A DNA stretch of 64,000 nucleotides from an uncultured Candidatus Saccharibacteria bacterium (GTDB taxonomy: Bacteria; Patescibacteriota; UBA1384; CAYGGE01): contig CAYGGE010000003.1 of the NCBI GenBank assembly GCA_964349485.1, positions 5,899-69,898 on the forward strand, in the 5' to 3' direction. Below are positions 2,041-34,591 of this stretch, piece by piece (position 1 is the first letter of the stretch; the number at the start of each line of letters is the position of its first letter). A program made the translations under genes and the position numbers. The notes beneath the pieces were generated by a model. It was not told where the DNA came from, did not search any database, and worked only from the letters and a program-made list of their open reading frames with translations.

Positions 2041-2178
2041 ATGAAAAATGTCCCGGTTACCAGCGTCCTCTCAATCGTCTTTGGCGTAATCATCCTCTTG
2101 GTGCCCCAGATTTTGTCCTATGCGATCGGTATCTACCTAATCTTAGTTGGCGCGCTCTCGTTTACTAAAGAAAAGTAA
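2041..2178 (+). CDS. small (45 aa) DUF3096-like membrane protein; below the ORF-track length cutoff
   Basis: strong RBS aggagg 5 nt upstream of ATG; hydrophobic MKNVPVTSVLSIVFGVIILLVPQILSYAIGIYLILVGALSF. Confidence 0.5.
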   Translation: MKNVPVTSVLSIVFGVIILLVPQILSYAIGIYLILVGALSFTKEK

Positions 2179-2188
2179 GGTTTGCCGA

Positions 2189-3310
2189 ATGGGGGATACA
2201 ACGGCTCCACTGGTTAAAGTATTTATTGCCCTGTGCATCGTCTCACTTGGAACGAACGTTATTTTGGGTTACCAGTGGCAAAGTGAACGTCAGCAGCTTC
2301 GCACCATGATTGCGGGAACCAAAAATGAACTCCAGCTTCGAAATGTTGAAAATAGTCAACTGAGCGAAGAGAACCAAGATTTCCAGACAGATATCGCCCG
2401 TAAGGAGCAAGAACTGGCGAAAAAGATAGCAGAGCTTGCTACCAAACAAAGTGCACTCAATGATTTGTCTAAACAACTGGCTGACAAGAAGTCCGAACTC
2501 GACACCAAGATTAGAGATTTAGCCGACGCAAAGAAGCAAGTCGACTCTCAAAAATCTCAGCTCGATGCCAATGCATCCGAACTCTCGAAGTTGCGTGACC
2601 GGCCACCCTTATTTTCTTTTCAGGTCAAGTCGACAAGTATAGTTGACGTAGAAGCCAAGAAGGCATCGGTGCAGCAAATCGTGACCGATGCCTATGAACT
2701 ATTTGATCAAATATATCCACGCTACTTGCTGAATAGCGTGACTATTACATTTGTTGATGCGTTTTCTAATCCTAACGCCGCCGGCGAAACAGTAATCAGT
2801 AATAGTAAAGATGGGTTGTCGATTGAAATACGGATTAAAGACTTCAATAAAAACAGTTTTAATGACATTAACACTATCCTCCACGAAGTGGCTCACGCCC
2901 TACGCGGAGTGGCAACGGTTGAGCCGACGGCTTGGGAAGAAGGATCGGCGGTAGCGATTACCGATGTGGTCATGCGAAAACTGGGCGACGCAGACAGGAT
3001 CCCTAAATTTAGTTCCTACTATATCCAGCTTACCGACACGCAATACGAAGCTAAACAAGCCAACCTCTCGATTCCTCGTGATGCTAACGCTTTTTATAGC
3101 AGTACCAAAGTTGTCGACTTCTACCAGGTTCTCGGTAAAGCCTGGTACAAACTCTATGAACAAGATATCGACTTCTTCAAAAAATTTAATGAAAAGCTCT
3201 ACGACCGAAAAGCTAGAGGCGAAGTGATTAACGAAGCCATGGTCCTCGATATCGTCCGCCAAGTCCTCCCCGAAGCGTCACTGACCGGCGCCGCTTGGAA
3301 TTTGAAGTAG
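2189..3310 (+). CDS. membrane-anchored coiled-coil protein with a C-terminal HExxH (zincin-like) domain
   Basis: N-terminal TM helix, ~120-aa heptad-repeat region (KQSALNDLSKQLADKKSELD...), then LHEVAHAL with downstream EEG; RBS aagtaagg. Confidence 0.55.
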   Translation: MGDTTAPLVKVFIALCIVSLGTNVILGYQWQSERQQLRTMIAGTKNELQLRNVENSQLSEENQDFQTDIARKEQELAKKIAELATKQSALNDLSKQLADKKSELDTKIRDLADAKKQVDSQKSQLDANASELSKLRDRPPLFSFQVKSTSIVDVEAKKASVQQIVTDAYELFDQIYPRYLLNSVTITFVDAFSNPNAAGETVISNSKDGLSIEIRIKDFNKNSFNDINTILHEVAHALRGVATVEPTAWEEGSAVAITDVVMRKLGDADRIPKFSSYYIQLTDTQYEAKQANLSIPRDANAFYSSTKVVDFYQVLGKAWYKLYEQDIDFFKKFNEKLYDRKARGEVINEAMVLDIVRQVLPEASLTGAAWNLK

Positions 3311-3387: not shown

Positions 3388-4680
3388 CTATCTGAAGATG
3401 TCGGGAAAATCGAAAGGCTGTTCTAGCTCCCGATCTAACCAGATCCCATCCCAGTTGATTCTTCTACCTCCTTTCTTGCCTCGCGATACTGCGTTGCCAC
3501 GCTGTATCGCTCTAGGGAATCGTGGTGGAGTGGTGATTGTAGTAGCTAGGGACTCCTGCCGGAAGCATTGCTCTGGCAACCCGTATTCTTGCGCCATGTA
3601 AGCAACTAAACTCTTTTCCGGATTAACAGTGTGGAAGTCCATTGCTATCGCAAGTAGTTCATGGGCTGACGCGCGTGGATATTCCTGACGATAAAGGTCT
3701 AGCCAATATCGTTTGAGGATCCAGTCGATAGACCATAGACTGCCCCATGGCTGATCCTTGTACTTCACTAGCTTATCAAGTACGTCGGCCCAACGGGTCC
3801 AGATGATCGACATCCAGCCCGGCACCTCGGCTGTCTGCGTTGTCCTTCGAATGAAACGCTCGGCGCTATCACAGAAGTACCTTTGCATATCAAGTGCTGT
3901 ATAGGCTCGTCGCGATTTACAAAGCACCTTTCTTTTCAGACTGGTGTCTGCATTGATGGTCTGCATGGCGATAATTGGCTGATCAGGGTAGAGGAAGGAC
4001 AGGTTCATACCAGCCTCAATCATGCTGAGGACAATGCTCGTCACACCAAGCTTTAGCAGATTAGACCAGTGGGTAAAGTTAGCGTCGCCGATCGTGAGGT
4101 GTAGACGCCGGTACTTTCTAGCCATGTCAGAGAGCAAGAGATGCTCATCACGACTATTCAGAATGGATCGATCCCCTTCTGTCGCATGGTATGCCTCTAC
4201 TTCATCAAGTACCGTTGCCCGTTGAGACTGATGGAACTGGCCCTTCATGTCGACATGTCCACTCCCACAGAAGATCGTCCTTGAGACGAGGAAGGGCACG
4301 AGTGTCGGTGCTAGTTCTTTTGCCCACTGAACCGATCGTTTCATTAAGTAGTTCTCATGACACCCAAATGACGTTCCTGCTGGGTCAATGTTGTCACGAA
4401 ATACCGAGATAATCCTTCCTTGTTTCAGATTGCGTGCCCTTAACCGGTTGAGGTAGATATCAAAACCGAAGTGATACCTAGTTGCCTCAAATGGATCAAG
4501 ACACTCAGGGGTAGCGTATTCTGGATGACCCATGTCCCTATAAAAACGTCCGCCGTTAGGTAGAAACTCACTGTCGAAGTCGCTCAGCCCCATGAGGTAC
4601 GTCACCGCATTTGTTGCATCTTCCTCACCTATCATGGCGCAACCATACTCCATATCTAGACCGATGATACGTGTCAGCAT
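3388..4680 (-). CDS. Pup-ligase family protein (PafA/Dop homolog)
   Basis: N-terminus RIIGLDMEYG (cf. PafA RIxGxETEYG), HPEYATPEC, SFGCHENYL, LVPFLVSRT, NSRDEHL, KYRRLHLTIGDAN, LKLGVTSIVLSMIE all match conserved PafA/Dop blocks; GAGGA RBS before ATG at 4680. Confidence 0.8.
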   Translation of the reverse strand: MLTRIIGLDMEYGCAMIGEEDATNAVTYLMGLSDFDSEFLPNGGRFYRDMGHPEYATPECLDPFEATRYHFGFDIYLNRLRARNLKQGRIISVFRDNIDPAGTSFGCHENYLMKRSVQWAKELAPTLVPFLVSRTIFCGSGHVDMKGQFHQSQRATVLDEVEAYHATEGDRSILNSRDEHLLLSDMARKYRRLHLTIGDANFTHWSNLLKLGVTSIVLSMIEAGMNLSFLYPDQPIIAMQTINADTSLKRKVLCKSRRAYTALDMQRYFCDSAERFIRRTTQTAEVPGWMSIIWTRWADVLDKLVKYKDQPWGSLWSIDWILKRYWLDLYRQEYPRASAHELLAIAMDFHTVNPEKSLVAYMAQEYGLPEQCFRQESLATTITTPPRFPRAIQRGNAVSRGKKGGRRINWDGIWLDRELEQPFDFPDIFR

Positions 4681-4777
4681 TGCATCCTCAAAAAAAAAGA
4701 ACAGTCTCTGGTGAGAGACCAGAGTTGGCAGTAGTGTACCTGAAACTAGTATCACAATCAAGCACTTTTACCGATCG

Positions 4778-6097
4778 GTGTACGCGATTTCGTCGACTGA
4801 CAGGCTATGTTATAATAAGGCTGTCATAAGGAGGGACGTGGGTCTCTTTGATCTGTTTAGACGCCGGTCAATTGAATCTCGGTATGCACTGTCGCTCGAT
4901 ATTGGGACAGAGTTTGTTAAGGCTCTGGTTTTTAAAGTTGAGGACGATGGTAAGGGCTATGTTTTAGGCTACGGTCGTCAACGGCAGAAGCTATCCGACA
5001 TGCAGGGTGGGACCGTGACCGATATCCATGGTGTAATTCGTAATTGCGAAAGCGCAATTGAGCGGGCGGGGGAAATGGCCGGGGTCATCCCCCAGCAAGC
5101 GATCATTGGGATTGCTGGCGAACTGGTCAAAGGCACGACGACCGATATTCGCTATATTCGGCCTAACCCTAAAGCGAAAATTGACATGGTTGAATTGAAA
5201 GATATCGTTTCTCGAGTTCAGCGACGGGCGTTTGACCGTGCTCGGACGCTGTTGGCCTGGGAGAGTGGTCACAGTGAGCTTGACGTAAAACTGGTGAATG
5301 CGGCGATCGTCGATGTCCGGATCGATGGCCACAAAGTAACCAATCCACTCGGTTTCCAAGGGCGTGAGGTTCAAGTCGGAGTTTACAACTGCTTCGCGCC
5401 GATTGTTCATTTGGGTGCTTTGCAAACTATCGCTGACGAACTCGAACTTGACCTCTTATCGGTTGCGGCAGAACCTTACGCCGTAGCCCGATGTATTGGA
5501 CCCGAAGAGTCGTCCGAATTCTCGGCCATTTTTGTTGATATCGGCGGTGGAACCAGCGATATCGCAGTGGTTCGTTCTGGTGGCCTTGAAGGGACTAAGA
5601 TGTTTGCGATCGGCGGGCGGGCTTTCACCAAGAGAATTGCCCAAGTCATGAACATCACATTCTCAGAAGCTGAAGACTTAAAGCTTCGTTATGCTCAAGG
5701 CAATCTAGAAAAAGAGTTAGCCGATTCGGTTCACAATGCGCTCAAATCGGATTCAGCTGTCTGGCTGGCTGGTCTACAGCTTACGCTTGAAGAGTTCTCT
5801 AACTCTGAGCTGTTACCCAATCGCATACTCTTGTGTGGTGGTGGCTCAGGATTACCTGATATATACGAAACGTTGAACAACGCGAAGTGGGATAGCTCGC
5901 TCTCGTTCTCTCGTAAACCCTCAATTCACTTTGTGAAGCCGAAAGACCTCACCATGATTGTCGATAAAACGGGCGAGCTCAAAGAGCCACGTGATGTGAC
6001 ACCCATGGCTTTAGCCAATGTGGCGCTTGAACTAGTTGGTCAAGAAAAGCTAATGGATGGTGTCTTGAGCCGAGTGGTCAGTAGCCTTAAAGCCTAA
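4778..6097 (+). CDS. FtsA-like actin-family ATPase (possible GTG start at 4838 with AAGGAGG RBS)
   Basis: LDIGTEFVKALVF phosphate-1 motif, DIGGGTSDIAVV phosphate-2 motif, EPYAVA; FtsA/PilM superfamily. Confidence 0.65.
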   Translation: MYAISSTDRLCYNKAVIRRDVGLFDLFRRRSIESRYALSLDIGTEFVKALVFKVEDDGKGYVLGYGRQRQKLSDMQGGTVTDIHGVIRNCESAIERAGEMAGVIPQQAIIGIAGELVKGTTTDIRYIRPNPKAKIDMVELKDIVSRVQRRAFDRARTLLAWESGHSELDVKLVNAAIVDVRIDGHKVTNPLGFQGREVQVGVYNCFAPIVHLGALQTIADELELDLLSVAAEPYAVARCIGPEESSEFSAIFVDIGGGTSDIAVVRSGGLEGTKMFAIGGRAFTKRIAQVMNITFSEAEDLKLRYAQGNLEKELADSVHNALKSDSAVWLAGLQLTLEEFSNSELLPNRILLCGGGSGLPDIYETLNNAKWDSSLSFSRKPSIHFVKPKDLTMIVDKTGELKEPRDVTPMALANVALELVGQEKLMDGVLSRVVSSLKA

Positions 6098-6121
6098 AAC
6101 CGAGTACAATAGAGAGAAGCT

Positions 6122-7816
6122 ATGGATGAAATTCTTTACCTTGAACCTGATGAAGAGATAACCACGGTTATCGATAAACTAAAAAAAGCGAACACCAATT
6201 CGGTCGGTTTAGTGATCCCTCGAAGTGCCACCTTAGTACACAGTATTGTTAACCTTAAATTGCTGAAAAAAGAGGCTCAAAGTCTTGGCAAGGAGATCGC
6301 TTTAGTCATGACCGACCGGATTGGCAAGAATATTGCTTCCCAAGTCGGTATCCCAGTTTTCGAAGATGTCCACGCTAAGCGGCCAGTCAATGCTCACGCC
6401 TTGCCGGACATGCCTAAAGGCGACGAAGTTATAGAAGTAGACATGTCTAGTGGTCATACGAAAGAGCCAGCCGTTGAGAGCTCGACTGACACTGAACCGA
6501 TTGTTAAACAATATAGTACACAAACGTCTGAAGAGTCAGATAAAGCTGATAGTGTTCGAAAACAGCCGATTACTGCGGAGCATGATGATCAATCTGGAGA
6601 AGCACAACCGAAAAACTCCAACCATCATGAGACTCAACATAGACCAAAGCATAGAACGGGCACAAAATTTAAATTGATTGCGGTCGTTGTTGTACTAGCT
6701 GTATTGGTTGCTGGTTCATTTCTAGGACTACCACAATCGACGGTCTCGATCATTGTCGAGGCTGAACCGTTCGAAAAGACTGTGCCAATTGTCATTGCTA
6801 GCGAAAAACGAGCTTCAGACGACGATTCAATTTCGGCTACTGGCCAGCTGCTAGTGGTAGAAAATGATGATGCGCGGCGCGTTACTGCAACCGGTAAAAA
6901 AGATGTTGGTGGTAAATCCACAGGTAGCGTTAGCATCTCCAACGCTTGGGACAGTAACTCGATCAAGCTTGCCGCCGGTACCGATTTTACGTCGACTGAT
7001 GGAAAAGTCTACGATCTTGCCGAGGCAGTTACCGTGCCTGGCGCGACTGCAACCCTAAGCCAAGGACAGCTCGTCGCGACACCGGGGAAAGTAACTGGGA
7101 CGCTAATTGCTTTTGAACCGGGCGATAGTTATAATATCAAACCGACAAAGTTTACGATTCAAAATATCCCGTCAGAGCGTAAAGAAAAGATCTTTGGTGA
7201 GAGTAGTAAGGATTTTTCCGGCGGATTTACGAAACAGATAAGCATCATGACTCAAACTGATATCGACTCTGCCAAAGAGAGCATGGTCGGAGATCTGAAA
7301 GACAAGGCGAAACAAGAACTGACTAAGCAAGGTAAGGACATGAAGTTGCTCAGCGAAGCCGTAGCCACCGAAGTAGTAAGCGTTGAGACTAATCCAAAGG
7401 CGGTAGGGAGTGAGACTGATTACTTTGACTTGAAGGTTAAAGTAAAGAATCAAGTTATGGTCTTTGATGAGAAGGGTATGAATAGTGCAGTTGATAACGC
7501 CGTACGCAAAAATGTACCTGACAACAAAGAGTTGATCCTCGGCGAGGATGACGAGTTCGTGATAGAAGTTGATAAAACTGATTATGACAATGGTCAGTTG
7601 ATACTGAACGCTAAAGTAAAAACTAAGATTGGGACCCGTGTAGACCCCAAGGAAGCGAGACAAGGCTTAGCCGGTAAGAACAAAACGACAATAATGCAAA
7701 CCCTCGCCGAGTTACCTAATGTCAAAAACGTAGAAGTTCAGAAGTTTCCTACTTGGTGGTGGCAAGATACTTCTTTTGCACCCTGGAATACTCGAGTTAA
7801 AGTACTCTATGAGTGA
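6122..7816 (+). CDS. hypothetical bitopic membrane protein (564 aa): ~190-aa cytoplasmic N-domain, one TM, ~350-aa external domain
   Basis: hydrophobic FKLIAVVVVLAVLVAGSFLGL; no recognisable catalytic motif. Confidence 0.5.
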   Translation: MDEILYLEPDEEITTVIDKLKKANTNSVGLVIPRSATLVHSIVNLKLLKKEAQSLGKEIALVMTDRIGKNIASQVGIPVFEDVHAKRPVNAHALPDMPKGDEVIEVDMSSGHTKEPAVESSTDTEPIVKQYSTQTSEESDKADSVRKQPITAEHDDQSGEAQPKNSNHHETQHRPKHRTGTKFKLIAVVVVLAVLVAGSFLGLPQSTVSIIVEAEPFEKTVPIVIASEKRASDDDSISATGQLLVVENDDARRVTATGKKDVGGKSTGSVSISNAWDSNSIKLAAGTDFTSTDGKVYDLAEAVTVPGATATLSQGQLVATPGKVTGTLIAFEPGDSYNIKPTKFTIQNIPSERKEKIFGESSKDFSGGFTKQISIMTQTDIDSAKESMVGDLKDKAKQELTKQGKDMKLLSEAVATEVVSVETNPKAVGSETDYFDLKVKVKNQVMVFDEKGMNSAVDNAVRKNVPDNKELILGEDDEFVIEVDKTDYDNGQLILNAKVKTKIGTRVDPKEARQGLAGKNKTTIMQTLAELPNVKNVEVQKFPTWWWQDTSFAPWNTRVKVLYE

Positions 7817-8240
7817 CCAATTGCAACAAACTAGTGCAGGACCCGTTCTCTTAGGTCTTGATTTGGGCACTAAGAGAAGTGGTGTAGCGATCGCTAAACA
7901 CGGGCTAGCAACCGAATATGACACTCTGACTGAACCAAACATGTTGGTCCAGTCGATAGTCGATATTTGTAAAAAAGAATTAGTGACCAAGATTATTATT
8001 GGACTTCCACTTAACAATGATCATACGGAATCCGATCAGTCAGGATGGGTCAGAAAACAGGTTGAATCAATTGTGGCGGCCACCCGATTACCGGTAGTCT
8101 TTGAAGATGAATATTTGACTAGTACGGAGGCCAGACAGCAGTTGTTAGCTCTTGGTCTGTCAGCTGATCAAATTAAAACCAGACTAGACTCAAAAAGTGC
8201 CCAATTGTTACTTGAACAGTATTTGACTCAGGAACTATGA
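7809..8240 (+). CDS. ruvX: YqgF/RuvX Holliday-junction-resolvase-like pre-16S rRNA nuclease
   Basis: LLGLDLGTKRSGVAIA RNase-H-fold signature; ATGA overlap with the upstream stop. Confidence 0.8.
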   Translation: MSDQLQQTSAGPVLLGLDLGTKRSGVAIAKHGLATEYDTLTEPNMLVQSIVDICKKELVTKIIIGLPLNNDHTESDQSGWVRKQVESIVAATRLPVVFEDEYLTSTEARQQLLALGLSADQIKTRLDSKSAQLLLEQYLTQEL

Positions 8241-9172
8241 ACTATTTTCGACTATTCATCCGAAGTCTCATCATCTTAGTCATCGCTTTCTGCTTGGGTT
8301 TGGTTTTCGGCTATGTCCGTGCCATCCGTCAGCCATTGCCGATCACAGAGCCCCTCACCATTACCATCGAAGAGGGTGAAGGACCAAGACTGATTGCCCA
8401 GAAACTGATCAAACAGTCAATCCTAGACAATGAACGACCGTTATTTGTCTATATTTTGGCAATGGGTAAACGAAATATGTTTTATCCAGGCGTTTATGAA
8501 CTCCCGACGCAAGCGTCGATTGTCGATATTGTCCGTATTCTGACGTCGGGCAAGAAGGACCACGTCGTTATCCGTATTAAAGAAGGTTCGAGGATCACTG
8601 ATATTGCAATAGAAATCCAGAAGAAGCTAGGAATCTCAGCGTCGGACATTATTGCTGTAGCTCCTGTAGAGAATTTCGAAGGCTATCTATTCCCCGATAC
8701 TTACTATTTCGCTAAGGAAGCGACTGCCCAATCTGTTGTCAAGACAATGCGGGATAATTTTAACACCAAAACCAGTACACTTGAGCTAACCAAAGAAGAT
8801 GTGATCTTGGCAAGTATCGTCGAACGCGAAGCGGCTAACGATTCAGAACGAGCAACTATTGCTGGTCTCTATCAGAACAGGTTAGCAATCGGCATGGCTC
8901 TACAAGCAGATCCAACTGTTCAGTATGCTAAAGGGAGTTGGGAGGCTATAAGTGTGGCTGACTACAGCAACGTAATCTCACCCTATAACAGCTATCTTCA
9001 CCAAGGACTACCACCGACGCCGATTGCCAGCGCCAGTCTTGCCTCACTTAAGGCCGTCAAATCACCAGAAAAGAGTGATTACTACTACTTCTTCCATACG
9101 AAAGATGGGCAAACGATCTTCTCTAAGACCGGAGCCGAACATACTGCCAATAAGGCGAAATTCTTGAGATAA
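8237..9172 (+). CDS. mltG: YceG/MltG endolytic murein transglycosylase
   Basis: N-terminal TM helix, YceG-like core, conserved ruvX-mltG synteny. Confidence 0.75.
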   Translation: MNYFRLFIRSLIILVIAFCLGLVFGYVRAIRQPLPITEPLTITIEEGEGPRLIAQKLIKQSILDNERPLFVYILAMGKRNMFYPGVYELPTQASIVDIVRILTSGKKDHVVIRIKEGSRITDIAIEIQKKLGISASDIIAVAPVENFEGYLFPDTYYFAKEATAQSVVKTMRDNFNTKTSTLELTKEDVILASIVEREAANDSERATIAGLYQNRLAIGMALQADPTVQYAKGSWEAISVADYSNVISPYNSYLHQGLPPTPIASASLASLKAVKSPEKSDYYYFFHTKDGQTIFSKTGAEHTANKAKFLR

Positions 9173-9269
9173 TGACCTTATTGGCTAGACATTAATTTGA
9201 TTTGACTTTGTGCCTCTTAACAGGTACAGTATAGCTTATACAATTTCTCCCTAAGTGACTAAGGACACA

Positions 9270-10313
9270 ATGATTGGTCGTTTTTTAGGTCTGTTTTCAC
9301 ATGATATCGGTATCGATCTGGGTACCGCCAATACTTTGGTCTATGTCCGTGGCCAAGGGGTGATTATCAATGAGCCGTCAGTCGTAGCAATTAATCAACG
9401 GACCAAGCAGATTTTAGCGATCGGTGACGAGGCACGCAGTATGGTTGGTCGGACACCGAGTCACATTGTGGCCATCCGTCCTTTAGTGGATGGCGTAGTC
9501 TCTGACTTTGAAGTTACCCAGCAGATGCTAAGGTATTTTATCCAAAAGGTTCATAAAGATAAGTTTTCATTCTTTCCGCATCCTCGAGTCGTCATCGGTA
9601 TACCGTATGGTGTGACTGAAGTTGAGCGCCGGGCTGTCGAGGAAGCGGCCCTAAATGCGGGGGCTCGTGAAGTTTTTCTGATCGAAGAACCAGTTGCTGC
9701 GGCGATTGGCGCTCGATTGCCAATTCAAGATGCTGCGGGTAGTATGATCGTCGATATCGGTGGCGGTACGACGGAAGTCGCCGTAATTTCCTTGGGAGGG
9801 ATTATTGCGAGTCGAAGTCTGCGGATAGCTGGCGATGAACTAAACCAAGATATTATCGATTTTGCCAGAAGTGAATATAATCTTCTACTCGGTGAGCGGA
9901 CAGCTGAAGATATCAAGATTGCGATAGGTTCGGTCTTGCCACTCCATGAGAAGCTGGAGATGCCAATGCGGGGCCGTGATCTGATCACCGGCTTACCAAA
10001 AGAAATTTTGGTAAGTGACGCGGCGATTCGTGAAGCAATCACAAAATCGGTTAAACAGGTCGTCGATGCAATCAAAGCTACGATTGAAGAGACGCCTCCT
10101 GAGCTGGTCGCCGATATTATGGCGAGGGGTATCGTCTTAGCCGGTGGTGGTGCTTTATTGAAAGGTTTAGACAAAGTAATTGCTGAGTCAACTAAAACAT
10201 CTGTTTATGTTTGCGATGATCCGCTGACCTCGGTTGTTCGGGGAACAGGTGTTGTGCTTGAAGATCTTGAATCGCTCAAAGAAGTCCTCGTGCCACCACA
10301 AGTAATACGCTAA
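9270..10313 (+). CDS. mreB: rod-shape-determining protein MreB
   Basis: DIGIDLGTANTLVYV, DIGGGTTEVAVIS, GIVLAGGGALL. Confidence 0.95.
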   Translation: MIGRFLGLFSHDIGIDLGTANTLVYVRGQGVIINEPSVVAINQRTKQILAIGDEARSMVGRTPSHIVAIRPLVDGVVSDFEVTQQMLRYFIQKVHKDKFSFFPHPRVVIGIPYGVTEVERRAVEEAALNAGAREVFLIEEPVAAAIGARLPIQDAAGSMIVDIGGGTTEVAVISLGGIIASRSLRIAGDELNQDIIDFARSEYNLLLGERTAEDIKIAIGSVLPLHEKLEMPMRGRDLITGLPKEILVSDAAIREAITKSVKQVVDAIKATIEETPPELVADIMARGIVLAGGGALLKGLDKVIAESTKTSVYVCDDPLTSVVRGTGVVLEDLESLKEVLVPPQVIR

Positions 10314-10320
10314 CTAAGGA

Positions 10321-11109
10321 ATGATGGTGATGTATCGAAGTTATTTATTTGCTATCGGTTTTGCCCTCGTCCTACTGATGACCAATCGATTTGGTGGATC
10401 TCCTAATTTTTCCAATTTAATTGCCGTAGTGATTGAACCAGTTATGGCCGCTGAAGGGACGGCGATTCGTAAGAGTGTCTCATTTTTTAACATTATTCTA
10501 AGTCTTCGAGATTTGGCCAGAGAGAATGCCGGACTTAATAAGCGGAATCATGAGCTTGAGGCGGAGATCAGTCGCTTACGAGAAGTTGAACATGAAAATG
10601 CGATTTTACGAGATGAACTGAAATTCTCCAAGGAATCAAAGACAGATTATATCCCTGCCCAACTGCTCGGTCAGACCAATACGGGCATCATCAAGGATTT
10701 GATTATCAATAAAGGTAGTAAAGAGGGGGTAGTGAGTGATTCGGCGGTAATTGCTCATGGTTATCTTGTGGGAGTCATCAAATCAGTCGAGATAAATCAG
10801 TCCACTGTACGTTTGGTTACTCACCCTCGTTCTATGATCCCGGTGATTACTCAAGATTCGCGGGCTCACGGACAGTTACGTGGAGGTATTGGTGGTTTAA
10901 TCATCACTGACTTGCTAATCGATCAACCGACTTCTCCAGGCGAGACAGTGGTGACTAGCGGTTTAGGTGGCAGTCTACCAAGTGGTATCCCAATTGGTAC
11001 GCTTATAGAAGCGACGGCGAGAAGTGGCGATATTACTAAACGAGCAACCCTCACTTTCCCTGTCGACCTTTCTCGATTGGAGATGGTCTTTATTCGTCAT
11101 AAACAATAG
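10321..11109 (+). CDS. mreC: rod-shape-determining protein MreC
   Basis: N-terminal TM helix, coiled coil (ENAGLNKRNHELEAEISRL), beta-rich C-domain; position after mreB. Confidence 0.75.
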   Translation: MMVMYRSYLFAIGFALVLLMTNRFGGSPNFSNLIAVVIEPVMAAEGTAIRKSVSFFNIILSLRDLARENAGLNKRNHELEAEISRLREVEHENAILRDELKFSKESKTDYIPAQLLGQTNTGIIKDLIINKGSKEGVVSDSAVIAHGYLVGVIKSVEINQSTVRLVTHPRSMIPVITQDSRAHGQLRGGIGGLIITDLLIDQPTSPGETVVTSGLGGSLPSGIPIGTLIEATARSGDITKRATLTFPVDLSRLEMVFIRHKQ

Positions 11110-11114
11110 ATCAA

Positions 11115-11579
11115 ATGCTCTATTTTTTACTTTCAATCTTGGCCATCTTCTTGCTCACCCTTGAGACAGTCTTGCCTCGCTGGCTAGGGGTTGGCACTCC
11201 CCATCTCTTACTTTCAGTACTTTTACCTTTTTGTTTCCAGTTTTCAAGCCAGCGGACGCTGTTTTTTGCCGTTCTATGTGGTCTTTTACTTGATTTCTTG
11301 CCGGGCTCTCTTCTTGGTCTGCATCTATTCCTCTTTAGTCTCTCAGCACTTAGCTTAAGCGCCTTACAGCGATCATTCTTTAAGGATCCGAGTATTCCGC
11401 TAGCTACGCTGTTGTTTGGTGTGGTTAGTCTCGCCTATGAGGTAGTACTTGCTCTCGTCTTTAGCGGTATGGGTTGGCTGATTCTGGCGCCCGTGGTGAC
11501 CACAACAATCTTTGCTTTGATTATCTACTGGCTACTGCTCCTCTTGGGTTCGCGAAAGGAGATATTACTGCATGCCTAA
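11115..11579 (+). CDS. mreD: MreD-like polytopic membrane protein
   Basis: 154-aa multi-TM protein between mreC and PBP2. Confidence 0.55.
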   Translation: MLYFLLSILAIFLLTLETVLPRWLGVGTPHLLLSVLLPFCFQFSSQRTLFFAVLCGLLLDFLPGSLLGLHLFLFSLSALSLSALQRSFFKDPSIPLATLLFGVVSLAYEVVLALVFSGMGWLILAPVVTTTIFALIIYWLLLLLGSRKEILLHA

Positions 11580-13491
11580 TCTCTTCGAGCCAAGTGATCC
11601 GATCGGTTCGTTCGAACGATCGGAGACCGAGTTTCAGGTTAACGTTGAACCGGCAAGTGATCTTGGCGAGGCAACGGTCTCAACGGCTGGTGAACGGGAA
11701 GCCAGCCGGTCCTTTCGATGGCCAATGTTGATCCAGGTTCTTATCTACGTAGTATTACTCACGCGATTAGTAAACCTGCAAATTACCGAGGGTAAGACGT
11801 TTCGTAACCTGGCCGAGGGCAATCGAATAGAGACAAAACTCTTACCAGCGCCACGCGGAGAGATCGTTGACAGGTCCGGTTCTGTCGTTGCTAAAAATGC
11901 TCCCCTATATAATCTCGAACTCTATCCAGCGCAACTTCCTGCGGCGAAGGCTGATCGTGAAGTTATCTATAAAAAAGTATCGACAGTGTCTGGTCACCCA
12001 GTCGACGAGATTATCAGTAAGATTGATCGGCGGGGCTTACGTTCGATTGACCCTGTTGTGCTTGAAACGAATTTAACCCAGGAAACTGCTCTCCTTTGGG
12101 AAATCGCTGTTAATAATCTGTCTGGCGTGGCGATCGCTCGCATACCGGTACGTTCTTATCTGAACATTCCTGGCCTCGCTCATTTATTAGGCTACGTTGG
12201 AAAATTGACCGAAAGCGAACAGGTTAAACGACCAGACATTTTACCCCAGTCGGCCATTGGCAAGACCGGTCTTGAATCCACCTATGATCGGTTCCTTCAA
12301 GGTACTGTCGGTGAAGAAGAGATCGAGGTCGACTCAAAGGGCCAAGTTCAGCGGACGATCGGTGCGAAGGCGCCTATCCCTGGTAATCAACTTAGACTCT
12401 ATCTCGATAAAGACCTTCAGCAAGTCATGAGCGATGCCCTAACGACGGGCTTAAAAAAAGCCGACCGAACTAAGGGTGTGGCCATAGCTCTTGACCCAAA
12501 AAATGGTGGTGTCTTGGGCATGGTGAGTCTACCAAGCTATGACAATAACGCCTTTATAACGTCCGATCGTAACACTGATCGGGCTAGTTATTTCGTCGAT
12601 AAAGATCTACCACTCTTTAACCGGGCGATCGCAGGCACCTATCCACCTGGCTCGACTATTAAACCAATCTGGGCCGTCGCTGGGCTCAACGAGGGGACAA
12701 TCAACGAGAGAACTTCGATAAAGACGCCAGTTGAAATTCGTATTGGTGACTCGGTCTTTCCAGACTGGAAATATCATGAATCCGCCGATGTCAAAACAGC
12801 AATTGCCGAATCGAATAACATCTTCTTTTACGCTTTGGCAGGCGGTTACGATAAGATCAAAGGACTAGGCCCACAAAAACTTAAAGAGTATGGGCAACGT
12901 TTTGGACTTGGTCAGGTGACTGGTATCGACCTACCCGGTGAGACAACGGGACTACTGCCCGACCCAGACTGGAAGAAGCGAGTAAAGAAGACACCTTGGT
13001 ACATCGGTGATACGTACCATATGGGTATCGGTCAAGGTGACGTTCTGGTGACGCCACTCCAGATCGTACGAGCTGTGGCGACGATTGCTAACGGCGGGAC
13101 CCTATACCATCCACAGTTAGTTCATGAAGTTAAGGACACTAACGGTCAGACTGTTCTCAACAATCAGCCAGTAGTTCAAGACTCAATTGACGGCGCGAGT
13201 AATATTTTAAGGATAGTTCGTGAGGGGATGCGAAAGACTGTAACTGACGGCACAGCTCGTTTACTTAATGATCTGCCGATTGCTGTTGCTGGGAAAACAG
13301 GAACGGCACAGTTTGAACAGAAAGATCGGACCCATGCCTGGTTTGTGGGGTTTGCTCCATATGAGAGTCCATCTATTGCCATAGTTGTGATGGTCGAGGG
13401 TGGTGGCGATAGCTATACAGTTGCACTACCTATTGCGAAGGAGATCCTAGCCTGGTATAGTGAGCATCCACCGAGAGGTGCTGACAGGTGA
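11572..13491 (+). CDS. mrdA: penicillin-binding protein 2 (peptidoglycan D,D-transpeptidase)
   Basis: SXXK (GSTIKP), SXN (ESNNIFF), KTG (AGKTGTAQ) motifs; TM anchor; mreBCD synteny. Confidence 0.9.
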   Translation: MPNLFEPSDPIGSFERSETEFQVNVEPASDLGEATVSTAGEREASRSFRWPMLIQVLIYVVLLTRLVNLQITEGKTFRNLAEGNRIETKLLPAPRGEIVDRSGSVVAKNAPLYNLELYPAQLPAAKADREVIYKKVSTVSGHPVDEIISKIDRRGLRSIDPVVLETNLTQETALLWEIAVNNLSGVAIARIPVRSYLNIPGLAHLLGYVGKLTESEQVKRPDILPQSAIGKTGLESTYDRFLQGTVGEEEIEVDSKGQVQRTIGAKAPIPGNQLRLYLDKDLQQVMSDALTTGLKKADRTKGVAIALDPKNGGVLGMVSLPSYDNNAFITSDRNTDRASYFVDKDLPLFNRAIAGTYPPGSTIKPIWAVAGLNEGTINERTSIKTPVEIRIGDSVFPDWKYHESADVKTAIAESNNIFFYALAGGYDKIKGLGPQKLKEYGQRFGLGQVTGIDLPGETTGLLPDPDWKKRVKKTPWYIGDTYHMGIGQGDVLVTPLQIVRAVATIANGGTLYHPQLVHEVKDTNGQTVLNNQPVVQDSIDGASNILRIVREGMRKTVTDGTARLLNDLPIAVAGKTGTAQFEQKDRTHAWFVGFAPYESPSIAIVVMVEGGGDSYTVALPIAKEILAWYSEHPPRGADR

Positions 13492-14069: not shown

Positions 14070-15635
14070 ATGTATTGGGCCGATGAGATTGCGCAAAAAG
14101 TTATTGCCCGTTCACCTGGCAAAAGCCTCTATCGAGTACATGACTATAAAACTCCTTCTGGGCGCATTCACGTGGGTGCACTTTGTGGCGTGATTATACA
14201 CGGAGTGGTTGCTCGAGCTCTTGAAGCTAAGGGTCACGATGTTGTCTACACCTACGGTTTCGATGACTATGATCCCATGGATGGTTTTCCTATCTATCTT
14301 CCAGAGAATTATCGTCAATATATGGGCATGCCACTTTCTGAGATTCCTTCTCCCCAGCCAGGCTACTCGAGTATTGCTGAACTATATGCGAAAGAATTTA
14401 TAGACGTATTTAACGCTCTCGGCTTTAAACCAACCATTTTGTTCATGAGTGAGTTTTATAAAACCGGCAAGTTTAACGAAGCGATCCGGATGGTTCTCGA
14501 CAATGCGGCAGTAATTCGGCAAATTTATAAAGAGGTAAGTGGTTCAGAGAAGCCCGATGACTGGTTTGGTCTGTCGGTACTTTGCCCCAACTGCGGTAAG
14601 ATTGGAACCACGCGGGTCTATGCGTGGGATGGCAAAGAAGTTAGTTTTAGATGTGAACCGGCAATGGTGAAGTGGGCCGAAGGTTGTGGTCATGTTGGGA
14701 AAGTTGATCCATTTGATGGTCGCTCAAAATTGCCATGGAAGATCGAGTGGGGAGCGAAATGGTGGATGTTTAATGAAGATTTTGAAACAGCTGGCAAAGA
14801 TCACATGACAAAAGGCGGTTCCTTCGATGTAGCTGCTTCGATTTGTCGACAAGTTTTTAAAGCCGAGCCCCCGGTTGGCCGCGAAGTGCCTTATGAGTGG
14901 CTTTTAGTTGGCGGTAAGAAAATGAGCTCTTCTAAAGGCACTGGTGCCAGCGCAAAAGAAGTCGCCGAGCTGTTGCCTTCGCATTTATTAAATTTCTATA
15001 TCGCTAAAGGTAAGATTAATCGTCACAAAGAATTCTCTCCAGACGACAACACCATGCCCTTACTTTACGATGAATATGACAAAGCGATTGTCGCCTACCA
15101 TGCAGACCCCGAAAGTGATTTAGCGAAGGTGATTAGTTACATTAAGTCTGACGATCAGGTGTTCCCCCAGTATACCATGCGTTTTACGAAAGTTGCCTTC
15201 TTATCCCAAATGCCGAGCGTCAATGTCTGGGACGTGGCTCGTAGCGAAAAGGGGACTGAGTTATTGCCAGAGGATGAGGCCGAGCTCACCGAACGGCTGG
15301 CCTATGCCGAGGTATGGTTAGCTACGCTAGCCCCCGATGCGTATAAGTTTGTGCTTCAAGCTACACTACCGTCGGTTACACTCACTGCGCTCCAGAAAAA
15401 TTTTCTCGAAAAACTATATACCATAATGCTTGAAAACGCTCAATTGACTGGTGCCATCCTTCACGAGAAAATTCATGCCCTCAAGACTGAAGCGAACCTC
15501 TCACCCGCAGAAGCATTTGGTGCCATCTATCATATCTTCCTGGCCAAAGACTCCGGTCCTCAGGCAGGTTGGTTCTTGGCGGCTCTTGATCGAGAATTTG
15601 TCCTCAATCGTCTGAAAGATGCAGCACTAAAGTAA
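14070..15635 (+). CDS. lysK: lysyl-tRNA synthetase, class I (archaeal-type LysK)
   Basis: HVGA (HIGH-type) and the class-I LysRS-specific KMSSSKGTG motif. Confidence 0.8.
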   Translation: MYWADEIAQKVIARSPGKSLYRVHDYKTPSGRIHVGALCGVIIHGVVARALEAKGHDVVYTYGFDDYDPMDGFPIYLPENYRQYMGMPLSEIPSPQPGYSSIAELYAKEFIDVFNALGFKPTILFMSEFYKTGKFNEAIRMVLDNAAVIRQIYKEVSGSEKPDDWFGLSVLCPNCGKIGTTRVYAWDGKEVSFRCEPAMVKWAEGCGHVGKVDPFDGRSKLPWKIEWGAKWWMFNEDFETAGKDHMTKGGSFDVAASICRQVFKAEPPVGREVPYEWLLVGGKKMSSSKGTGASAKEVAELLPSHLLNFYIAKGKINRHKEFSPDDNTMPLLYDEYDKAIVAYHADPESDLAKVISYIKSDDQVFPQYTMRFTKVAFLSQMPSVNVWDVARSEKGTELLPEDEAELTERLAYAEVWLATLAPDAYKFVLQATLPSVTLTALQKNFLEKLYTIMLENAQLTGAILHEKIHALKTEANLSPAEAFGAIYHIFLAKDSGPQAGWFLAALDREFVLNRLKDAALK

Positions 15636-15691
15636 TCGCTTGTAGCCTACTAACCCATGAGGTACAATTCTCTTAAGAATAGGAGCACCTC

Positions 15692-16984
15692 ATGCTTGAT
15701 ATCCGAATAGTTCGTGACAATGTTGATAGAGTAAAAGTAGCAATTCAAACCAAAGGATTCGATCCTGCGCTTATTGATGAGTTGTTGCAAGTTGATGACC
15801 GACGTCGTGTCCTGCAAAGTAAAGCAGATGATTTGCGGTCCAAGCGAAAAACTTTGACCCAAGCAGATATCGATCAAGCGCGAGTACTCAAGCAAGAACT
15901 TGAGGTGATTGAAAAAGATCTATCTGGCGCTGAGGCTAAGTTGGCTGCGCTTTTGTATAAGATACCGAATCTGCCATCAAGTGATACACCAATCGGTCGT
16001 GATGATACAGAAAATGTCGTATTAAGAACAGTTGGCCAACCTAGAACTTTTGACTTTACCCCAAAGAATCACTATGAGTTAGGCAGAGACTTAGGTATTA
16101 TTGATTCTGAAAAAGCTGGAGAAGTGTCTGGAACCCGCTTTACTTATACTAAGGGTCGTTTGGTACTCCTCGAATTAGCGTTAGTTCAATATGCAATGAG
16201 TGTCCTGACCGACTGTAAAATGCTCCAGGCAATTGCTGTCGAAGCTAGACTTGATGTTTCAGCCAAGCCTTTTTTGCCAGTATTGCCACCCGTCCTCATT
16301 AAATCAGAAGTTATGGAAAAAATGGCTCGCTTGGAGCCAAAGGAAGAACGCTACCACCTACCTACCGATGATCTCTATCTTATCGGAAGTGCCGAACATA
16401 CTCTTGGACCAATCCATATGGGTGAGATGCGGCAAGAATCCGAATTGCCACTTCGATACGTAGGTTTCTCGACCGCATTTCGCCGTGAAGCCGGTTCCTA
16501 TGGCAAGGATACTAGAGGGATTTTCCGTCTTCATCAGTTCAACAAAACTGAGATGGAATCATTCACTCTGCCAGAGCATGGTCAGGCTGAACAAGACTTT
16601 TTTGTGGCGATCCAAGAATATCTTAATCGGTCACTTAATTTGCCATATGAAGTCCTAATCTGTTGTACAGGCGATCAGGGCGATCCTGATGCCAGACACC
16701 TTGATATCAATACTTGGATGCCTAGTGAAAACAAATACCGTGAAACCCATTCAGCTGATTATATGACCGACTACCAGGCTAGACGGCTGATAACCCGAGT
16801 CAAACGAGCAGATGGTGAGACAGTGTATGTCCACATGAACGATGCAACCGTCTTTGCTGGCCGAACCCTCATCGCAATTATGGAGAACTATCAGCAAGCG
16901 GATGGATCGCTAACTATTCCTGAAGTTTTAGTGCCATTTTGTGGATTTTCTGAGATTGGCGCAAGAGCTCAAAAAGAGGAGTAG
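15692..16984 (+). CDS. serS: seryl-tRNA synthetase
   Basis: N-terminal coiled-coil arm, class-II motifs (RFTYTKGRLV, FRREAGS). Confidence 0.9.
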   Translation: MLDIRIVRDNVDRVKVAIQTKGFDPALIDELLQVDDRRRVLQSKADDLRSKRKTLTQADIDQARVLKQELEVIEKDLSGAEAKLAALLYKIPNLPSSDTPIGRDDTENVVLRTVGQPRTFDFTPKNHYELGRDLGIIDSEKAGEVSGTRFTYTKGRLVLLELALVQYAMSVLTDCKMLQAIAVEARLDVSAKPFLPVLPPVLIKSEVMEKMARLEPKEERYHLPTDDLYLIGSAEHTLGPIHMGEMRQESELPLRYVGFSTAFRREAGSYGKDTRGIFRLHQFNKTEMESFTLPEHGQAEQDFFVAIQEYLNRSLNLPYEVLICCTGDQGDPDARHLDINTWMPSENKYRETHSADYMTDYQARRLITRVKRADGETVYVHMNDATVFAGRTLIAIMENYQQADGSLTIPEVLVPFCGFSEIGARAQKEE

Positions 16985-16986
16985 AT

Positions 16987-17301
16987 ATGCAACTTATTAA
17001 TAAAGTTCGCCACACGAAATTAGATCCTGGCACAAAAGAGTATGCAGAAGCAAAAATTGGCGAGAAATGCATGCAGTATTTGGGTGACGATTCAGCGGTT
17101 GTCTGCGAGATAGAATTTGATGATCAACTCGGTCGAAAGGATGGGGAAGATAAACGTGTAGATGTGACGATTACCTTGCCTCACGAACATCTACCACTGC
17201 ATATTGAAGAAAGTGATCAAACATTCCAAATGGCCATCGATCGAATCGCTGATCGAATAGATAAAGCTCTCCTACGCTATAAAGAGACCCATAAGCGCTA
17301 A
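16987..17301 (+). CDS. hpf: ribosome hibernation promoting factor / RaiA (short form)
   Basis: VDVTITLPHEH...DQTFQMAIDRIADRIDKALLRYKE matches the S30AE/YfiA family. Confidence 0.8.
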   Translation: MQLINKVRHTKLDPGTKEYAEAKIGEKCMQYLGDDSAVVCEIEFDDQLGRKDGEDKRVDVTITLPHEHLPLHIEESDQTFQMAIDRIADRIDKALLRYKETHKR

Positions 17302-28019: not shown

Positions 28020-28766
28020 GTGGTTAAGACAAAATCTATCACCAAACCTGATACGAGATCGAGCGATCCGCCTAGGCAAGATGACTCAATTATTCACATC
28101 CACCATGTGAGTAAACATTATGGATCAATTATTGCGCTAGATACGATTGACATCAAGATTGAGCGAGGTGAATTCGTCTCTTTAGTCGGTCCTTCGGGCG
28201 CCGGCAAGTCAACGATCATCCGATTATTAATCGGTGAGGAGCGACCAACAACGGGTCGTATTTTTGTTGCTGGCAGAGATATTAGTCAACTCCGCTCTAA
28301 TGAATTACCCTACTATCGACGGAAGATTGGAGTGGTATTTCAGGACTTTAAGTTATTACCTCAGAAAACAGTCAAAGAGAATGTGGCCTTTGCTCTAGAG
28401 GTGGCCGACGTTGAAGCCGATGATATAGCCAGACGAGTCCCAAAGATGCTCGATCTCGTTGGTATGGGGGCGAGAGCCAATGAATTCCCCACGGTTCTTT
28501 CTGGAGGAGAACGTCAACGAATTGCCATCGCTAGAGCGATGGTTCACTCGCCTAAAATCTTGATCGCCGACGAACCGACTGGCAATCTCGACCCCGAAAA
28601 CAGTCGTGAGATTATCGAACTACTCCAACGCATTAACTCAGCCGGTACTGTCGTAGTTTTAGCTACTCATAACAAGGAAGTAGTTAATGCTCTACATCGA
28701 CGAGTTATCTTAGTTCGGTCCGGCAAGATCATGAGTGACCAGATGAACGGTCAATATATGCTTTAA
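28020..28766 (+). CDS. ftsE: cell-division ABC ATPase FtsE
   Basis: Walker A GPSGAGKST, signature LSGGERQRIAIARA, Walker B ILIADEPTGNLD; followed by ftsX. Confidence 0.85.
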   Translation: MVKTKSITKPDTRSSDPPRQDDSIIHIHHVSKHYGSIIALDTIDIKIERGEFVSLVGPSGAGKSTIIRLLIGEERPTTGRIFVAGRDISQLRSNELPYYRRKIGVVFQDFKLLPQKTVKENVAFALEVADVEADDIARRVPKMLDLVGMGARANEFPTVLSGGERQRIAIARAMVHSPKILIADEPTGNLDPENSREIIELLQRINSAGTVVVLATHNKEVVNALHRRVILVRSGKIMSDQMNGQYML

Positions 28767-28812
28767 GACAAGATCCGCTTCAAACTATTTCCAAGTTTAA
28801 TTTTTAAACAAT

Positions 28813-29790
28813 ATGCAAATACTGACGCTCAAACGAATATGCAAGCTCGGTCTGACCAATTTCTGGCGAAATGGCTGGCTTTCGATAGCCGCTAGTCTGA
28901 TCATTATGCTGACCCTGCTCACCATGGGTATTTTTTCTTTGCTCAATGTCTTCGTCAATGCGACTGCCGAAGGAATAAAAGACCGGATCGACCTATCAGT
29001 CTATTTCTATGAGAACGCTACCGAGACCCAGATTAAGGATATGCAATATATTCTCACGAACCGTGTCGATGTTAGTTCGGTACACTACATCACTAAGGAC
29101 GAAGCTTTTGCCTTATGGCAAAAGAGAGCGATTAACGAAAAAGTTAAAAATCTAGTCACTAAAGATGAGAATCCGTTACCACGTAGTCTACAGATTAAGG
29201 CCGCCCAGCCAGAGTATTTGGAATCGATCGCCCGATTTGTCCAAGCGGATAGTTACAAACCCTACGTCAGGGAGGTTAGTTATCTTAAAACAAAAGTTAC
29301 GATCGATAAACTCATTCGCCTGACTAATTTCGTTCGGCAACTGGGTATAGCGGTAACTATTTTTCTGCTCTCGATCTCACTTGTCGTTGTCCTGAACACC
29401 ATTCGTTTGACCATATTTACTAGACGTGATGAGATTGAGATTATGCGATTGGTCGGGGCGAACAATATCTTTATCCGCATCCCATTTAGTATCGAAGCCG
29501 TTCTTTATGGGGTTGTTGGTGCTCTGCTGGCTTATGTCGTGATTGCCATAGGTATGTCCTACCTCGGACCACGCATCGCCAGCTACTTTGCCGACATATC
29601 CTCAGCTTCATCAACTTCATATTTCTACCTCATCCAGCCCTACTTTTCAGCGATCTCCAATGGCACCGGATCAGGTGTAATTCGGAGCCTCATCACTTTA
29701 TGGCCACTGGGCTTGTTTCAACTGGTTGTTGGCATCACCTTCAGTGTCGCCTGCAGTATGCTGGCGATTCGTCGGTATCTACGTGTCTAA
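28813..29790 (+). CDS. ftsX: cell-division permease-like FtsX
   Basis: 4-TM topology with a large first extracellular loop; ftsE synteny. Confidence 0.8.
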   Translation: MQILTLKRICKLGLTNFWRNGWLSIAASLIIMLTLLTMGIFSLLNVFVNATAEGIKDRIDLSVYFYENATETQIKDMQYILTNRVDVSSVHYITKDEAFALWQKRAINEKVKNLVTKDENPLPRSLQIKAAQPEYLESIARFVQADSYKPYVREVSYLKTKVTIDKLIRLTNFVRQLGIAVTIFLLSISLVVVLNTIRLTIFTRRDEIEIMRLVGANNIFIRIPFSIEAVLYGVVGALLAYVVIAIGMSYLGPRIASYFADISSASSTSYFYLIQPYFSAISNGTGSGVIRSLITLWPLGLFQLVVGITFSVACSMLAIRRYLRV

Positions 29791-29824
29791 TTGCTCATAA
29801 CGCCCTCAAATGTTATAGTGAGCT

Positions 29825-32988: not shown

Positions 32989-33019
32989 CCATATTTCTCC
33001 TTCGTTGGGAAGGAGCAAT

Positions 33020-34480: not shown

Positions 34481-34591
34481 TTAGACAACAAGCACGACAT
34501 TTTCGTGCTGTTTCTATCTTTGCCTGATTCCTGTTTCTGTGTTATTTTTAAGTAGCATCCAATATGCCTAATTGCATGATAAAGGGAGTTT

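Follow-up and report, generated by a model that had tools for sequence, protein, structure and literature searches.

We report a pair of adjacent genes, encoding an actin-like ATPase and, immediately downstream on the same strand, a bitopic membrane protein, in a stretch of 64,000 nucleotides (64 kb, hereafter the window) from an uncultured Candidatus Saccharibacteria bacterium. Judged by its sequence, the ATPase belongs to a distinct third paralogous family in the FtsA/PilM branch of the actin superfamily, and the outer domain of its partner shares homology with the baseplate-wedge (Baseplate J/gp47) proteins of phages. More than 8000 homologues of the ATPase and 239 of the partner were found, so that both are real genes and not chance open reading frames (ORFs). 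The pair is a third FtsA/PilM-type module, visible in databases under misleading names and itself unstudied; the literature searched gave no description of it. On balance, we lean towards reading it as a conserved two-component envelope-spanning module with the logic of PilM-PilN and FtsA-FtsN, most likely acting in peptidoglycan growth or remodelling, and it appears to be ancestral to the Chloroflexota-Dormibacterota-Patescibacteria group.

Family and fold of the ATPase

Comparison with profile hidden Markov models (HMMs) showed that the ATPase is nearest to FtsA and lies below the cut-offs of both FtsA and PilM. The FtsA equivalog model TIGR01174 gave 107.1 bits against a cut-off of 175.85 (E 1e-30, model positions 3-260 of 371 aligned) and NF007009 gave 62.3 bits against 409, and the PilM models TIGR01175 and PF11104 gave 34.9 bits against 133 and 23.9 bits against 27, respectively. 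An MreB identity was rejected at 24.4 bits against 365.75; the true MreB is encoded at 9255-10313 (474 bits). The Pfam scan returned only the generic FtsA C-terminal module, with no match to SHS2_FTSA, and a sequence search of the PDB placed FtsA best with at most 63 bits, PilM reaching 34 bits.

At E<=1e-30, an exhaustive HMMER search of 1.84 billion representatives (50% clustering) yielded 363 members of the ATPase family. The 150 highest-scoring of these 363 were all full-length proteins (~400-450 aa) with 29-60% identity and at least 190 bits and, because the FtsA proteins of the PDB scored at most 63 bits, the family is a large one whose members are nearer to each other than to canonical FtsA. 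Identity was 64-94% among the best 120 homologues and 46% between the window ATPase and the Dormibacteraeota orthologue, a conservation between phyla far above that of typical FtsA.

The AlphaFold2 model of the ATPase (predicted local distance difference test, pLDDT, 81.8; predicted template modelling score, pTM, 0.82) exhibited an inserted beta-beta-alpha-beta-beta unit at residues 87-188, a subdomain of the 1C type replacing 1B. Foldseek ranked FtsA structures first over a full-length alignment (E 3.6e-29, TM-score 0.69/0.79) and PilM structures second (E 2e-21). After a low-confidence linker, the model ends in a helix at residues 405-418 that is amphipathic in four lineages, with a hydrophobic moment of 0.51 in the window protein and of 0.79-0.88 in the three others. 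The protein carries LDIGTEF and DIGGGTSDIAVV, and across 55 homologues there is no variation in the phosphate-1, phosphate-2 and GGG adenosine motifs. An earlier note on this stretch had named an FtsA-like actin ATPase from the phosphate-1 (LDIGTEF) and phosphate-2 motifs and had proposed HMM classification as a check; both motifs are indeed present, and FtsA is the best match in sequence and in fold.

Residues 48-63 of the ATPase (4979-5026) include the family-invariant Q48, Q50, L52, D54, M55, G57, V60, D62 and I63 and form a loop modelled with low confidence (pLDDT below 50 at 56-60), which is a candidate interaction surface.

The earlier note had left the start of the gene between GTG 4778 and GTG 4838. 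This ambiguity is resolved to GTG 4838, on which the Shine-Dalgarno (SD) sequence, the N-termini of homologues and the gene calls agree: AAGGAGGG lies at 4828-4835, just before this codon, the homologue consensus MGLFDFL aligns with VGLFDLF of the window protein that starts there, and the 419-aa ATPase was called by gene callers on three independent contigs, with the same genes on ENA, Logan and NCBI contigs. Positions 4778-4837, from GTG 4778 onwards, are an unused extension of the ORF.

We consider it unlikely that the ATPase is the functional FtsA of this lineage, that is, a divergent orthologue or a division-specific paralogue which tethers FtsZ to the membrane, with the partner as an FtsN-like divisome protein signalling to septal wall synthesis. 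Such a role would fit the closeness to FtsA by HMM, PDB sequence and fold, the KEGG-type annotation K03590, the JGI name 'cell division protein FtsA' given to family members, and the predicted C-terminal amphipathic helix, which resembles the membrane-targeting sequence of FtsA. The loop MQGGxVxDI of the ATPase also resembles what we take to be the same region of E. coli FtsA. The FtsA-FtsN pair (PDB 7q6i, Vibrio maritimus FtsA with FtsN 1-29) shares further the actin fold with a 1C-type insert and a bitopic partner whose N-terminus lies in the cytoplasm and is joined by a linker and a single transmembrane segment to an outer domain in the wall compartment. However, the cytoplasmic element of the partner studied here is a folded domain of 85 aa instead of a short peptide, its outer domain is Baseplate-J-like and not SPOR, and the ATPase gene is never beside ftsZ, either in the window or in 80 related loci, all of which also lack a tubulin signature. 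In Chloroflexota in general, ftsA and ftsZ are adjacent in the dcw cluster (PMC10608941). The cultured relative Southlakia epibionticum ML1 has a separate, SHS2-positive FtsA (SEML1_0174) directly upstream of FtsZ (SEML1_0175), both essential, whereas the apparent counterpart of the ATPase, SEML1_0656, showed only a growth defect (transposon sequencing, Tn-seq, HMM calls NE/NE/GD at three time points; PMC10633639). A canonical FtsA identity was therefore rejected from the HMM cut-off, the gene context and this gene table. The apparent orthologous pair thus coexists with an adjacent ftsA-ftsZ in S. epibionticum, and the suggestion of the earlier note that the partner stands instead of FtsZ gives way to that of a paralogous module located elsewhere in the genome, which replaces no FtsZ.

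Still more improbable is that the pair serves a type IV pilus, competence or a related filament machine as an inner-membrane platform of the PilM-PilN type. The type IV pilus alignment complex (PDB 2ych, 5eou) resembles the pair in several respects: PilM belongs to the same branch of the actin superfamily and its structures are strong fold matches, the partner is bitopic as is PilN, and the ATPase gene lies immediately 5' of the partner gene, often overlapping it. The NCBI pipeline also called the S. epibionticum gene 'pilus assembly protein PilM'. Against this, the PilM HMM scores are far under threshold, no pilB, pilC, pilN, pilO or pilin genes were found near the pair in any locus, the partner has a folded domain at its N-terminus in place of the short peptide of PilN, and its ectodomain bears no relation to PilN or PilO. 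S. epibionticum has in addition a bona fide type IV pilus PilM, SEML1_0104, with a PilN-like neighbour, SEML1_0105 (PMC10633639). The PilM identity was rejected from the HMM scores and the gene context.

Two members of the ATPase family, P0349 (locus L093, 2327-5236) and P0363, possess long N-terminal extensions with Peptidase_C14 (caspase-like) or TIR, and no partner gene adjoins that of P0349. These extensions suggest a side branch with a different role, possibly in signalling or defence.

The bitopic partner and its baseplate-like ectodomain

The partner gene (6122-7816, forward strand) codes for 564 aa and follows the ATPase gene after 24 nt (6098-6121), where the earlier note had counted 25. 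The AlphaFold2 model of the protein (pLDDT 86.9) consists of four parts: an alpha/beta domain, a disordered stretch, a transmembrane helix and a beta-rich ectodomain (Table 1). The product is, as first described, a bitopic protein and not FtsZ, with one transmembrane helix, no tubulin signature and an outer domain rich in T, K and V (362 aa; K 10.5%, V 10.0%, T 9.1%). The cytoplasmic N-terminal region of ~190 aa described at the same time is cytoplasmic but smaller as a domain, with 85 folded residues followed by ~95 disordered ones. The net charge of the window protein is +3 before the transmembrane helix and -2 after it, the means among 71 homologues are +4.1 and -0.2, and the charge before the helix exceeds that after it in 68 of the 71; since the positive-inside rule is obeyed, the N-terminus lies inside the cell.

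The N-terminal domain (N-domain) is the best-conserved part of the partner and contains the motif YLEPDEEIT and the invariant residues Y6, E11, E12, I13, P33, S41, L45 and D65. Pfam gave nothing consistent on 31 of these N-domains, and a PDB profile search with the N-domain gave chance-level matches only (E>=0.84). ECOD calls on the S. epibionticum counterpart, SEML1_0655, comprise a SpoIIaa-like domain (6-105, probability 0.888), an aminomethyltransferase beta-barrel, a G3P pilus-binding domain and the gp6 C-terminal domain III (PMC10633639); hhalign of our N-domain against a SpoIIAA sequence gave a probability of 0.1%. Homologues of the N-domain alone were mostly contig-end fragments, together with a split form in Moranbacteria and a Dormibacteraeota locus. 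The linker that follows measures 65-162 aa in the 71 homologues and ~450 aa in Ktedonobacteraceae, and the length of the ectodomain is fixed at 349-386 aa in the same 71.

The ectodomain model was matched by Foldseek in the PDB to GlxA (E 5e-8) and, with E between 7e-6 and 3e-4, to baseplate wedge proteins from phages XM1, Mu (gp47), A-1(L), Pa193 and Milano. The Foldseek probability was 1.00 for XM1 (E 7e-6), Mu (1e-5) and A-1(L) (2e-5), the likeness being at the level of domains, with global TM-scores of 0.13-0.22, and its matches in BFVD were Baseplate J-like proteins. At E<0.01, 52 of the 71 homologues matched PF21110 and 25 matched PF04865; the window partner itself reached 21.6 bits against 27 for PF21110, with no match to PF04865. 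A high-GC homologue, P0448, gave 25.1 bits against 21.1 for PF04865, and the Ktedonobacteraceae orthologue matched phrog_6 (baseplate wedge subunit; E 1e-12), with no PHROG match for the window partner. We conclude that the ectodomain is homologous to the phage baseplate-wedge proteins, a fold which leaves the function of the partner here unexplained. The partner that the earlier note called unrecognised is indeed uncharacterised but not wholly unknown, and a name such as uncharacterised bitopic protein whose ectodomain is Baseplate-J-like describes it better.

The likeness to the Baseplate J/gp47/T4 gp6 wedge (PF04865; PDB 9ki1 for Mu and 7kh1 for XM1) and to the GlxA beta-barrel (PF21110; PDB 4unm) lies in the beta-barrel and the domains that follow it. 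Unlike the wedge proteins, the partner is cellular, membrane-anchored and extracellular, is fused to a cytoplasmic domain and a transmembrane helix, and has its gene in a housekeeping operon that contains no further tail genes; the low global TM-scores indicate that the domain arrangement differs as well. It is very improbable, in spite of the homology of its ectodomain, that the partner is left over from, or part of, a phage-tail-like structure (contractile injection system or prophage) or a defence system, with the ATPase as an unrelated neighbour. No sheath, tube or spike genes were found in the neighbourhood, the context is a housekeeping one in every locus and is conserved across three phyla, both genes are core in Patescibacteria, and adjacency and fusion with the ATPase speak against independence. 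A defence-system identity was rejected for lack of PADLOC hits.

Conservation of the gene pair and proposed function

Synteny was scanned with one genome per species and 80 loci were returned, all from Patescibacteria. The ATPase gene lies directly upstream of the partner gene in 72 of the 74 evaluable loci. The two genes are separated by a median of 15.5 nt, with overlap or direct contact in 17 of 78 pairs. The earlier note had likened the pairing to PilM-PilN or FtsA-FtsN and had proposed synteny in related genomes as a check; adjacency, tight spacing, a fusion and the persistence of the pair through changes of context all agree with it.

The conserved gene order is alaS - ATPase - partner - ruvX - mltG (- mreBCD - pbp2). 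Downstream of the partner, ruvX comes next in 61 of 78 loci, mltG is present in 66 of 70 loci and mreB in 43 of 59. On the upstream side, 63 of the 80 Patescibacteria loci have alaS no more than 4 kb from the ATPase gene, and alaS is upstream in Chloroflexota and Dormibacterota as well. Ktedonobacteraceae (Chloroflexota) exhibit the order alaS - ATPase - Baseplate_J protein - ruvX - yceG - bacA, with a partner of 933 aa, as does a metagenome contig of 409 kb; in a Dormibacteraeota metagenome-assembled genome (MAG), alaS - ATPase - N-domain protein is ended by the contig edge. No alaS was found in the whole window, where the upstream side of the module has been replaced, and no terminator-like site was seen in the window between the genes of the ATPase, partner, ruvX, mltG, mreBCD and PBP2. 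Rod genes are missing from the Ktedonobacteraceae, Moranbacteria and S. epibionticum versions of the module, and mreBCD is absent from Ktedonobacteria (PMC10608941). The module is thus independent of the Rod system, as it is present in Ktedonobacteria and S. epibionticum where mreBCD is absent.

Natural rearrangements also join the two proteins. A fusion protein of 875 aa, found on two independent contigs, combines the ATPase (30% identity, E 3e-61) with the transmembrane helix and ectodomain of the partner (25%, E 2e-31) and has no partner N-domain; it mirrors the natural PilM-PilN-like fusion logic. Because this fusion dispenses with the N-domain, it is a Rosetta-stone hint which suggests that holding the ATPase to the membrane protein is the usual task of the N-domain. 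A Moranbacteria MAG has the partner in two pieces, a 161-aa N-domain protein and a 473-aa transmembrane-ectodomain protein, both encoded after the ATPase, with the ATPase gene adjoining that of the N-domain and ribosomal genes downstream. P0448, on one short contig, joins the C-terminus of the ATPase to an N-domain, a transmembrane helix and a Baseplate_J domain, and may be a second fusion or may result from a frameshift.

In S. epibionticum, the order is alaS (0657), SEML1_0656, SEML1_0655, RuvX (0654) and MltG (0653) (PMC10633639 Tables S1/S2, Wang et al. 2023). SEML1_0656 (427 aa) is named 'PilM' with the annotation K03590 and SEML1_0655 (556 aa) is named 'baseplate J/gp47'; from gene order, similar sizes and the same domain calls and annotation, they are most likely the orthologues of the window pair. 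They are listed under these generic names in the supplementary tables only, and the main text of that paper has no occurrence of 'baseplate', 'FtsA', 'FtsZ' or 'MreB'. Both genes were flagged as core and Patescibacteria-enriched. The Tn-seq HMM calls for SEML1_0655 were NE/ES/ES, that is, essential on passaging, with normalised reads falling from 373 to 34 and 24 (PMC10633639). If the orthology holds, both genes of the pair thus affect fitness.

In the proposed mechanism, the ATPase binds ATP and would sit at the inner face of the membrane through its C-terminal amphipathic helix, and it may dock onto the 85-aa cytoplasmic domain of the partner. Through the flexible linker and the transmembrane helix, the nucleotide or assembly state of the ATPase could then be coupled to where the outer domain lies or how it oligomerises, and this baseplate-wedge-like domain would act in the cell-wall compartment. 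The pair is presumably co-transcribed with ruvX-mltG and, in this lineage, also with mreBCD-pbp2, and it is this co-transcription that suggests a role in peptidoglycan growth or remodelling.

Several points weigh against this proposal. Its weakest step is the cell-wall role, for which gene order is the only evidence. The alaS-ruvX-mltG genes form an old conserved cluster in their own right, as in the gene order of Firmicutes, which may do no more than house the pair. The ATPase gene is not adjacent to the partner in 2 of the 74 loci; at locus L092, the pair is parted by three inverted genes, and the 559-aa protein encoded there remains clearly homologous to the partner (hhalign E 4e-42). The persistence of the module without mreBCD means that it is not an obligate part of the Rod complex. 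The orthology with SEML1_0656/0655 is drawn from synteny, gene sizes and annotation, and the apparent essentiality of the partner could be due in part to polarity on the overlapping, essential ruvX. Lastly, the Tn-seq table lists the partner as essential and MltG itself as non-essential (PMC10633639).

More speculatively, and in our view doubtfully, the FtsA/PilM-like ATPase might polymerise and pattern rings or arrays of an outer baseplate-wedge-like domain that organises the assembly of the wall or of a surface layer. The pair would then be an unrecognised cytoskeleton-to-envelope system, ancestral to Chloroflexota, Dormibacterota and Patescibacteria and a cellular relative of the phage baseplate wedge proteins; if true, this bears on the origin of the baseplate wedge fold.

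Patescibacteria account for much of bacterial diversity, and no function has been assigned to most of the core genes that they conserve. The pair is core, lineage-enriched and relevant to fitness in the sole genome-wide screen at hand, and the database labels FtsA, PilM and 'baseplate J' are misleading for it. Recognition as a third FtsA/PilM-type module corrects this annotation, and metagenomic counts of 'ftsA' in these bacteria probably mix two genes. The envelope-spanning module is also a shared derived character linking Patescibacteria, Chloroflexota and Dormibacterota, a case of a phage-baseplate fold used as the outer domain of a housekeeping membrane protein, and an entry point into the envelope building of ultrasmall bacteria, which is tractable since genetics exist for S. 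epibionticum.

Feature coordinates and neighbouring genes

Table 1 Positions of the ATPase-partner module and adjoining features in the window.
Feature	Positions	Strand	Description
Sigma-70-like promoter candidate	4725..4752	+	Divergent intergenic region 5' of the ATPase gene; 9/12 consensus matches
ATPase gene	4838..6097	+	419 aa, FtsA/PilM-family actin fold; GTG 4838 supported by SD, homologue N-termini and gene calls
Partner residues 1-85	6122..6376	+	Conserved cytoplasmic alpha/beta domain, pLDDT >92; proposed ATPase docking domain
Partner residues 86-180	6377..6661	+	Disordered acidic/polar linker of variable length; pLDDT <50 at 110-180
Partner residues 181-202	6662..6727	+	Sole transmembrane helix, N-terminus inside
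Partner residues 203-564 and stop	6728..7816	+	Extracytoplasmic beta-rich domain, Baseplate-J/gp47-like, with GlxA-type beta-barrel; pLDDT >90
ruvX (YqgF)	7809..8240	+	PF03652, 96.7 bits; ATG overlaps the partner stop codon by 8 nt
mltG (YceG), endolytic murein transglycosylase	8237..9172	+	PF02618, 246.9 bits
mreB, mreC, mreD, PBP2 (Rod complex)	9255..13491	+	Pfam matches; cluster continuation in this lineage only

The divergent intergenic region held no more promoter-like sites than shuffled sequence did, and the candidate of Table 1 is weak evidence for a promoter. Divergent from the ATPase gene, on the reverse strand, lies a homologue of the Pup ligase (PafA/Dop; 3388-4761, PF03136 304 bits), a surprising gene for a reduced Patescibacteria genome; neither pup nor proteasome genes were seen near it. 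A 387-aa coiled-coil protein without a real family match is encoded at 2147-3310 (forward strand); of the relatives, only the closest (L004, 68% identity) shares it on the upstream side of the ATPase.

On the Saccharibacteria-like contig of L092, RuvX and YceG/MltG are fused into a protein of 531 aa (15487-17082), joining genes that are usually deemed unrelated. One of the loci, L059 (DATIHE010000041.1), is titled 'Candidatus Nanoarchaeia archaeon' and yet holds the bacterial set of ATPase, partner, ruvX and yceG; mis-binning of a Patescibacteria contig is the probable cause.

The window is a Berkelbacteria-like contig of Patescibacteria from a metagenome, and its remaining large ORFs are housekeeping genes. 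A cluster for FtsE, FtsX and a coiled-coil M23 peptidase (EnvC/PcsB-like) at 28020-31093 (forward strand) forms a second module for the control of cell-wall hydrolysis, and a 468-aa ORF at 55440-56846 (reverse strand) had no Pfam match at E<=1e-5. At 33005-36073 (forward strand), two lamin-tail domains occur in a protein of 491 aa, and a LytR-CpsA-Psr protein is encoded next.

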